A stretch of 63,317 nucleotides of DNA, counting the filler, from Collodictyon triciliatum (taxonomy: Eukaryota), in NCBI GenBank assembly GCA_043381765.1. It is 18 parts of 18 records of this genome, joined end to end, with 100 filler letters (N's around TTAATTAATTAA, not from the genome) between each part and the next. Parts side by side here need not be neighbours in the genome. Positions count along the whole stretch, not along the records: positions 38,758 to 42,200 come from JBHJMP010007361.1; positions 42,301 to 45,722 come from JBHJMP010007362.1; 16 more parts are not named here. One strand, 5' to 3'. The notes below the pieces were generated by a model that was not told the DNA's origin, searched no databases, and was given only the letters and a program-made list of their open reading frames with translations. Below are positions 41,640 through 42,329 of the stretch, one piece after another (the stretch's first letter is position 1; each line of letters opens with the position of its first letter). Position numbers and translations under genes: made by a program.

Positions 41640-41790
41640 CTGTTGGGTCTTTCTGGCAACCTTCACCACTAAACGACCTAAGTGAAAAAAATGGTGAGAC
41701 GTTGGATACTAGCGGAACGAGGTTTACCAATCGAAAGATTGGTTTACTCCCTCTAGTCTTTCATTCTCGGTGCAAATAAACCTCGATTCC
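41640..41790 (+). ncRNA. Candidate Fanzor omegaRNA scaffold
   Basis: Lies directly 3' of RuvC-III. Stems seen: CAAC-TTCACCA/TGGTGAG-GTTG (41657-41704); ACCAATC-GAAA-GATTGGT (41726-41743); ACTAG/CTAGT (41708/41753); GGAA-CGAGGTTTA/TAAACCTCG-TTCC (41714-41790). Confidence 0.65.
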
Positions 41791-42329
41791 ACATTGTGAA
41801 CTAAACCAATCCGGACTAATGTGCTCCACATATGCTTTCATTGAAACTTTTTACGGTTACAGAAGTTGAAGAGAAAATAAAGCAAAACAGAACTCTAACA
41901 AAAAAAAAAAAATGCGACTGGTTCAGCGCGGGTTCAAGTCTGTCGTGAATCGCTCTCTGCTCAACACACGTCCCACAGCAAACAGCGTTTCCACAGGCAA
42001 CTCTGCCTCCAGTTTTGTGGACAACATGACCGAATGATCTCCATAAGATGCCTAAATACAAACACATCTCAAATCTAAAAAAAATAATAATTCTTTTCTC
42101 TTTTCTCTTCTTTTTTCTCTTCTTTTTTCTCTTTTCTCTTTTCTCTTTTCTCTTTTCTCTTTTCTCTTCTTTTTTCTCTTTTCTCTTTTCTCTTCTCTTT
42201 NNNNNNNNNNNNNNNNNNNNNNNNNNNNNNNNNNNNNNNNNNNNTTAATTAATTAANNNNNNNNNNNNNNNNNNNNNNNNNNNNNNNNNNNNNNNNNNNN
42301 AAGATATAAAAGAAAAAAAAAAAAAAGAC

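Follow-up and report, generated by a model that had tools for sequence, protein, structure and literature searches.

We identified the remains of a Fanzor type 1 (Fanzor1) nuclease gene, and probable remains of the guide-RNA scaffold behind it, in a 63,317-nt stretch of the Collodictyon triciliatum assembly GCA_043381765.1, referred to below as the window. Our favoured reading, to which we assign a probability of about one half, is that the region is the 3' end of a decayed Fanzor1 copy, in which 41647-41700 is a relic of helices P1 and P2 of the guide RNA (omegaRNA) and 41714-41790 a remnant of its guide-proximal domain. Judged from motif, position and reading frame, the 5'-domain relic is likely; the assignment of the hairpin and long helix at 41714-41790 to the guide-proximal domain, made by architectural analogy, is plausible and unproven. 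The initial annotation had placed a candidate omegaRNA directly behind the RuvC-III motif of the gene, at 41640-41815. That proposal was supported in kind, in rough place and for its first third; the rest is unproven, and its first stem, its long reading frame and the place of its predicted fall in paralogue likeness were not borne out. The locus is a fossil whichever reading holds and belongs, as an unremarkable decayed copy, to a known class.

The upstream gene remnant

Translated alignment (tblastn) of protein P0003 (634 aa) covered positions 39752-41571 of the window with residues 2-585, passing through frames 2, 3 and 1 (residues 2-474 at 39752-41242, 470-525 at 41229-41396 and 526-585 at 41398-41571). 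P0003 in turn matched the solved Fanzor1 proteins SpuFz1 (8gkh; E 9.2e-37, near full length), PpFz1 of Parasitella (7.2e-34) and GtFz1 of Guillardia (7e-16), and it is through P0003, not by direct match, that the window gene is tied to them. By its sequence the window gene is a Fanzor1 pseudogene, spanning 39746-41712 on the plus strand from an ATG at 39746 to a probable 3' end near the TAG at 41710-12. It is spread over at least three frames with many in-frame stops, and neither an intact RuvC triad of DPG, shifted Glu and RD nor an open frame was found, the 'GADPGK' of RuvC-I reading 'VVVGA--GKF' with the DPG missing. The nuclease gene being dead, the window copy cannot function as a system by itself. 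RuvC-III is retained as RDFNSA (41554-41571), so that the Fanzor RuvC-III placed just upstream by the initial annotation is present, on the same strand and with Fanzor1 homology via P0003.

The best-preserved part of the gene is the segment at 41398-41571 (+), comprising a zinc finger (CxxC...CxxC) and RuvC-III, which displayed 52-57% identity to P0003, P0004, P0002 and P0005; 27 protein relatives of this piece were found at E<=0.001, P0003 among them. Homologue searches with a 79-aa piece under the settings 'longer' and 'near' returned nothing. Pfam recognises solely the Cas12f1-like TNB zinc ribbon in this family, and the corresponding PF07282 match was weak in the window (E 0.023, under the curated cut-off) and above the cut-off in the relative P0019. 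P0004 is a Fanzor1 fragment of 378 aa whose name in JGI/IMG, '6-pyruvoyl-tetrahydropterin synthase', disagrees with its sequence and is apparently a mis-annotation.

A conserved 3' RNA in giant-virus relatives

P0003-like genes were collected from giant-virus contigs of IMG/VR, at first from five loci and later as 397 relatives, the best 80 of which were retrieved. These yielded 68 distinct 3' regions with both anchors and 10 duplicates, and of the other two loci L018 runs off its contig and L066 has no end motif. Alignment A3 comprised 67 of the 68, with L048 omitted owing to an insertion of ~48 nt. The relatives displayed 49-88% amino acid identity to P0003 and 38-57% to the C-terminal piece of the window, the closest to the window being the L006 group (54-57% over 61 residues, from a scan with a five-sequence alignment).

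These giant-virus Fanzor1 loci carry a conserved, covarying, RNA-like block that overlaps the last codons of the gene and ends sharply. The block opens at CGTCTTTCAC within the coding tail and closes at GGTGTAA, a length of 117-183 nt (median 136; for example L025:3269-3406 and L006:3332-3451). Its start lies 86-98 nt past the RD codons of RuvC-III in 58 of 68 relatives, and the stop codon follows GTCTTTC by 40-92 nt in 56 of 58 loci (mode 52). Pairwise identity among the 68 loci was 0.84 in the final 10 nt before the end and fell to 0.40 and then ~0.3 beyond it. We drew a structure model by hand with 28 pairs in five helices: P1 (GTCT/AGAC), P2 (a variable hairpin), P3 (a variable hairpin around the stop codon), P4 (ATC/GAT) and P5, which closes the 3' domain onto the terminal GGTGTAA. 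Across the 67 loci of A3, 93.2% of cells were able to pair, compared with 44-53% when partners were slid, and 179 cells displayed double-sided changes, compared with 16-85. The paired percentage, the number of double-change cells and the covariation score were each reached by 0 of 500 shuffles; P1 covaries among the relatives, and RNAalifold alone recovered P1, P2 and P3. We met no description of this 3' RNA in the Fanzor papers cited here; no literature search aimed at it was made.

Conserved tails ('...SSFTSS...EKVRPS' and '...GLTFT...EKVGQSVDF') stand within otherwise variable C-termini among L006-L085 and coincide with P1 and P2. The retention of '…SSFT…EKVRPS' tails fits codons that double as P1/P2, which suggests, from sequence comparison, that RNA structure constrains the C-terminal protein sequence (dual coding). 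In L048 (3266-3446) the ~48-nt insertion is GC-rich, carries its own hairpins and lies in the loop region of the 3' domain, with the flanking conserved blocks intact.

A covariance model, R1, was built from the same 67 loci. L018 and L066, which are not in the model, scored 97 and 95 bits, and 8 of 10 distant held-out loci were found (L089-L096, E 1e-6 to 0.017) whereas L097 and L098 were missed. A further match of the 3' half of R1, at 24-17 bits, lay on the minus strand ~400 nt ahead of the relatives' genes (L018:1047-1104, L066:1078-1123, L094:713-759, L093:854-900), which indicates that these elements seem to have terminal inverted repeats of ~50 nt, the left end including sequence that precedes the gene.

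A probable 5'-domain relic in the window

The corresponding start of the block can be recognized in the window as a probable omegaRNA 5'-domain relic, GTCTTTC...GTGAGAC, at 41647-41700 (+). The composite motif GTCTTTC followed by GT[AG]AGAC occurred once on both strands of the 63 kb where 0.03 occurrences were expected (first-order Markov simulation, 300 runs), a figure to be read with the allowed spacing of 20-70 nt, wider than the 25-39 nt of the relatives, and with an alignment that was chosen after a first, poorer one. The motif begins 93 nt past the RD codons, inside the relatives' range, and its GTCT (41647-50) and AGAC (41697-700) pair 4/4 as helix P1. Between them lies a short hairpin with a 10-nt loop (CACT/AGTG, 41667-84, +) at the place of the relatives' variable P2, and behind it comes an A-run, a feature that the relatives have too. 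Read in the frame continuing the protein ('…SALNDILKK…GSF…'), the motif gives the residues SF, comparable to the SSF of the relatives. The window agrees with the giant-virus RNA in the P1 frame, in the offset from RuvC-III, in overlapping the last codons and in its range of overall length, and it has about 11 extra nt within P1.

An alternative correspondence, of the relatives' CTTTCAC to CCTTCAC at 41660, was dropped as GTCTTTC at 41647 fits the offset, frame and P1 pairing better. A second GTCTTTC stands at 41756; we treated it as chance, since a repeat between 41620-41755 and 41751-41900 scored 19, a value equalled by 236 of 300 shuffles.

The position of the ancestral stop codon can be estimated from the same comparison. 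As the relatives stop 40-92 nt after GTCTTTC, the ancestral stop of the window copy would lie at ~41690-41740, and it was probably near the TAG at 41710-12, 63 nt after GTCTTTC. The initial annotation had noted a frame that stays open to a TAA at 41777-79 and proposed that the ancestral coding sequence might have overlapped the RNA. The open frame itself (41555-41779) was confirmed; its 74 codons found no relatives in a homologue search, and the C-terminal tails of the relatives align with other frames, which likewise suggests a stop near 41710 and speaks against the longer coding sequence.

Pairings and fold of the candidate 3' domain

Every pairing listed in the initial annotation exists at its coordinates. 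CAAC/GTTG pairs 4/4 and TTCACCA/TGGTGAG 7/7 (one G-U); TGGGTC and GACCTA, proposed as pseudoknot arms, are complementary over 6/6 positions (one G-U); GATTGGTTTA and TAAACCAATC pair 10/10; and the ACTAG and CTAGT segments stand at 41708-12 and 41753-57. The pair CGAGGTTTA/TAAACCTCG (9/9) is lengthened by GGAA/TTCC (41714-17 with 41787-90) past a 1-nt bulge, giving a long helix, GGAACGAGGTTTA / TAAACCTCG-A-TTCC, of 13 bp with one bulge (41714-41790, +; arms 41714-26 and 41777-90). Within it lies a perfect 7-bp hairpin with a GAAA loop, ACCAATC-GAAA-GATTGGT (41726-41743, +; 7/7), followed by TTAC.

The region 41705-41790 folded with a z-score of -3.67 (0 of 200 shuffles as good), for a sub-region picked after the sequence was seen. 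Scanning the 63 kb in 86-nt windows, 15 of 1708 windows of similar GC reached its energy, its own overlapping windows included, as did 161 of 6008 windows of any GC, in 40 places. The fold is therefore in the top ~1% of GC-matched windows and is a strong local fold of a type found roughly once per 10 kb here. Rfam models gave no match at E<=1 over 39000-43000, and an omegaRNA lying wholly upstream (41480-41690) was rejected as a structured unit (z -0.38).

In plan, this region recalls the 3' domain of the giant-virus RNA. The 13-bp helix surrounds an inner hairpin and stops ~10 nt short of 41800, as in the relatives' P5/P6 plan, but with different letters. In the relatives AGAC is directly followed by CAATCG…TTGATTTTAC, whereas in the window 26 extra nt intervene before ACCAATC-GAAA-GATTGGT-TTAC; the segment 41726-47 recalls, by eye only, the relatives' CAATC...GATT-TTTAC module.

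The full model of the initial annotation would explain the same pairs as one complete omegaRNA. It comprises Stem 1 (41657-41704), a pseudoknot and the GAAA hairpin enclosed by two nested helices, with the scaffold ending at 41775-41790 and the ancestral coding sequence open as far as 41777. All of its pairs exist, its predicted end falls inside the range derived from the relatives, and its architecture evaluates to -30.8 kcal/mol, compared with a minimum free energy of -40.8 kcal/mol for 41640-41800; the giant-virus-like architecture reached -22.9 kcal/mol, a slightly too weak value as its P2 was placed off by one base (3/4 pairs). Nonetheless we regard the full model as quite improbable. The pairs of Stem 1 are real, but homology predicts GTCT (41647-50) with AGAC (41697-700) instead, and this P1 overlaps and excludes the TGGTGAG of Stem 1. 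The frame to 41777 is without relatives, moreover, and the stops of the relatives point to ~41690-41740.

Paralogous copies and the case for truncation

Several results weigh against the favoured reading. R1 produced 14 matches at E<=10 in the window, the best of them 13.3 bits at 7674, and none fell in 41560-41900; when applied to those 341 nt by themselves, its best match was weak (41661-41694, model positions 5-43, 6.5 bits, E 0.21). Profiles searched with nhmmer, built from A3 and from A6 (the five closest loci), found nothing in 41640-41815 at E<=100. The invariant blocks of the relatives, TTGATTTTAC, CGGCGTTTTAAAT and GGTGTAA, are missing from the window or faintly echoed (GATTGGTTTAC at 41737-47, GGTGCAAA at 41769-76, TGTGAA at 41795-800). 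The motif spacing of 40 nt is just beyond the relatives' 25-39. Dense pairing over the whole region, as claimed initially, was not better than in dinucleotide shuffles: 41640-41815 has a minimum free energy of -41.9 kcal/mol and a z-score of -1.20, with 20 of 200 shuffles folding at least as well, and the minus strand gave the same z-score (24 of 200 as good). In the giant-virus alignment itself, the number of pairs with a double change (13; 102/500) and of further pair types (33; 373/500) did not exceed shuffles. No upstream inverted-repeat partner marking a left end was found in the window, though the relatives have one.

To these are added the paralogous copies, seen in contigs from public sequencing runs mapped onto 40000-42150 at >=80% likeness (X1, 368 contigs; X8, 326; X3, 190; X2, a freshwater metagenome, 8). 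Most of the mapped contigs were 80-95% like the window, and from their number and likeness it is clear that the Fanzor1 body belongs to a high-copy family, present also in freshwater metagenomes; positions 40000-41655 are repeated at high copy number in two coded organisms, with 326-368 contigs mapped. Summed contig depth over the gene body ranged from 44 to 468 in X1, 80 to 409 in X8 and 9 to 99 in X3. It stood at 83, 80 and 37 (X1, X8 and X3, respectively) over 41584-41655, at 6, 13 and 8 over 41656-41727, at 7, 0 and 0 over 41728-41799, and at 0 in each over 41800-41871; from that bin onward it was 0 in all four runs, a poly-A peak beyond 41871 excepted. The contigs are short and broken at variable sites, which makes this profile coarse. 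Depth thus falls 7-13-fold or more just past 41655 although the body is only ~10-13% diverged, from which we conclude that most copies do not share the window sequence past ~41685.

The high-depth contigs end 12-21 letters past 41653, and their loose ends are window-like for ~20 nt and then diverge. A minority of copies share the window sequence further, none of them beyond ~41800: X1 contigs reach 41799 at most, and two contigs of X8, in which an internal deletion joins 41392/5 to ~41620, reach ~41678 and ~41714, as calculated from side lengths and in agreement with the binned depth. By our reading of the tables, one X2 contig carries about 41722-41757 in slightly changed form and is unlike the window upstream of 41722. 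The initial annotation had predicted that likeness among paralogues would drop at 41775-41790; for most copies the drop came near 41655-41685.

The family includes internal-deletion derivatives (for example 41392/5 joined to ~41620, and 40716 to ~40810) and the window copy has private indels; family contigs differ from it by indels at 40447, 40483, 40602, 40636, 41336 and 41396. No second copy of the element was found within the 63-kb window. A protein scan of metagenome contigs gave 89 pattern matches and no relative, and a 24-nt DNA pattern gave 0 matches. Among the 10 sequencing runs listed for the stretch, with small shares of 0.05-0.09, none is on record as RNA; X1 and X8 are only guessed to be RNA and were not used for expression.

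These data could also be explained by an element that extends only to 41647-~41712 and was truncated or rearranged there, in which case 41714-41800 would be an unrelated low-copy repeat or small foldback. In favour of this are the sharp fall in depth after ~41655 and the X2 contig, which, as we read it, contains the downstream piece and departs from the window upstream of 41722; the segment 41714-41800 is also unlike the strongly conserved 3' domain of the relatives by both R1 and nhmmer, and equally strong folds occur about once per 10 kb. Against this, the block matches the relatives' guide-proximal domain in place and approximate length and shares its plan of a closing helix, an inner hairpin and a short tail. 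We estimate the chance that one of ~6 strong folds of similar GC would land in these 150 nt at about 1-2%, and neither a target-site duplication nor another copy was found in the window. On balance we consider truncation the main rival explanation, serious but unlikely.

Under the favoured reading, the 3' domain of the window seems to represent a variant that is either diverged or confined to a minority of the family. One more specific possibility, which we hold to be rather doubtful, is that the family keeps a giant-virus-type 5' domain while in one subfamily or more a 13-bp helix with a GNRA hairpin has replaced the guide-proximal domain. Were this so, a eukaryotic RNA-guided nuclease would have undergone modular replacement of its scaffold, intact and possibly active copies would be expected elsewhere in the genome, and deletion derivatives would be expected to retain the RNA end.

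Candidate right end of the element

Position and strand fit an omegaRNA: the candidate sits where the nuclease gene ends and shares its strand. The relatives' lengths of 117-183 nt (median 136) from GTCTTTC place the scaffold end in the window at 41763-41829, and the zone expected to hold the element end is 41769-41800 (+), given these lengths and the zero depth beyond. Two candidate ends stand out, one after GGTGCAA (41775/6; compare the relatives' GGTGTAA) and one after TGTGAA (41800; compare GGGTGTGAA in L097), bracketing the right end to 41776-41800. The scaffold end at 41775-41790 put forward in the initial annotation lies inside the range derived from the relatives, although the likeness among paralogues falls at ~41655. 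If the element ends at 41800, the putative guide flank, as predicted from the architecture, would be 41801-41821 (+). TTTACCAATC (41723-32) and TAAACCAATC (41802-11) form a 9/10 direct repeat astride the candidate element end, with no wider repeat relation detectable. The search for inverted repeats gave low-complexity matches only, with scores of 29 (shuffles 22.5+-2.7, maximum 34) and 23 (shuffles 22.5+-2.3).

The 3' end of a Helitron carries a hairpin ~10 nt before a terminal CTRR and is inserted before a host T; the 5' end is TC, and autonomous copies encode a Rep/helicase. A pattern of this kind is visible in the sequence as the palindrome at 41726-43, a 9-nt spacer, CTAG at 41753-56 and a T at 41757, in which case Fanzor would be cargo, and Fanzors associated with Helitrons are among those reported, for example in Chlamydomonas (PMC10530073). 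The hairpin is AT-rich and the pattern short, however, and no Rep/helicase was found among the open reading frames (ORFs) of >=160 aa, 8 of 20 of which were scanned. X1 contigs continue past 41757, if the depth tables are read rightly, and the relatives end in GGTGTAA and have inverted repeats. A Helitron terminus is accordingly very improbable.

Proposed organization of the element

Taken together, the window would hold a decayed, non-autonomous copy of a high-copy eukaryotic Fanzor1 element. Intact relatives would encode the omegaRNA scaffold in the final ~50-90 nt of the gene together with the ~65-85 nt behind it, with P1 closing a variable P2, both in the coding tail, followed by a helix-closed domain that finishes at the right end of the element. 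The guide would be transcribed from the flank beyond that end. In the window, the helix with its GAAA hairpin at 41714-41790 would be the guide-proximal remnant, and the element would end between 41776 and 41800. As a fossil copy, its RNA may at most be usable in trans by intact copies elsewhere.

Genomic surroundings and implications

The window is AT-rich, microsatellite-rich, eukaryotic-looking DNA. Long ORFs are present at 5905-6960(+), 11594-12487(+), 15607-16839(-), 20117-20815(-) and 35638-37101(-), with products comprising WD40, protein O-mannosyltransferase, GT61 glycosyltransferase, leucine-rich repeat and HMG-box proteins, and the surroundings are those of ordinary gene-dense eukaryotic DNA with the Fanzor relic between genes. 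There are 36 runs of N (e.g. 38658-38701, 38714-38757, 42201-42244 and 42257-42300), one pair of them 400 nt downstream of the candidate RNA; the runs come as paired 44-N stretches 12 bases apart about every 3520 bases, a regularity that resembles masking rather than assembly gaps.

If the favoured reading is true, the window adds another, dead Fanzor1 gene with its 3' guide-RNA scaffold and ties a high-copy eukaryotic family to giant-virus relatives. Being non-functional, the locus is of small importance by itself. The more useful by-product is the RNA of the relatives, which is well bounded at ~117-183 nt, strongly covarying and may constrain the C-terminal tail of the protein. R1 together with the positional rule can serve to find omegaRNAs in this Fanzor1 clade, and the RNA may aid guide design for compact eukaryotic nucleases.

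Comparison with known Fanzor1 guide RNAs

Fanzor RNAs are described as abutting the right end of the element (PMC10530073), and the published Fanzor1 omegaRNAs run from the stop codon or the last codons to that end, with a stem beside the guide (PMC10432273; 10.1101/2023.08.09.552727). In SpuFz1 of Spizellomyces punctatus a scaffold of 75 nt is reported between the stop codon and a 30-nt right inverted repeat, with a guide of 14-15 nt, and the GtFz1 omegaRNA is reported to overlap 17 C-terminal codons (both PMC10432273). The reRNA of SfAV-type insect-virus Fanzor1 is described as a three-stem scaffold of ~120 nt whose conserved stem-loop stands beside a guide of ~20 nt (10.1101/2023.08.09.552727). 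To the SfAV-type reRNA and the GtFz1 omegaRNA the window is likened by these descriptions and not by sequence, and the element types differ.

SpuFz1 belongs to the same protein family as the window gene, and its RNA as described offers the same plan that we propose here: it is encoded at the 3' end on the strand of the gene, has a stem by the guide and takes its guide from the flank. The two differ in that the SpuFz1 scaffold lies wholly past the stop codon, whereas in the window the homologous start falls within the coding tail and the candidate has a length of ~130-155 nt. SpuFz1 also has a 30-nt inverted repeat; in the window no inverted-repeat partner was found, and the gene is a pseudogene.

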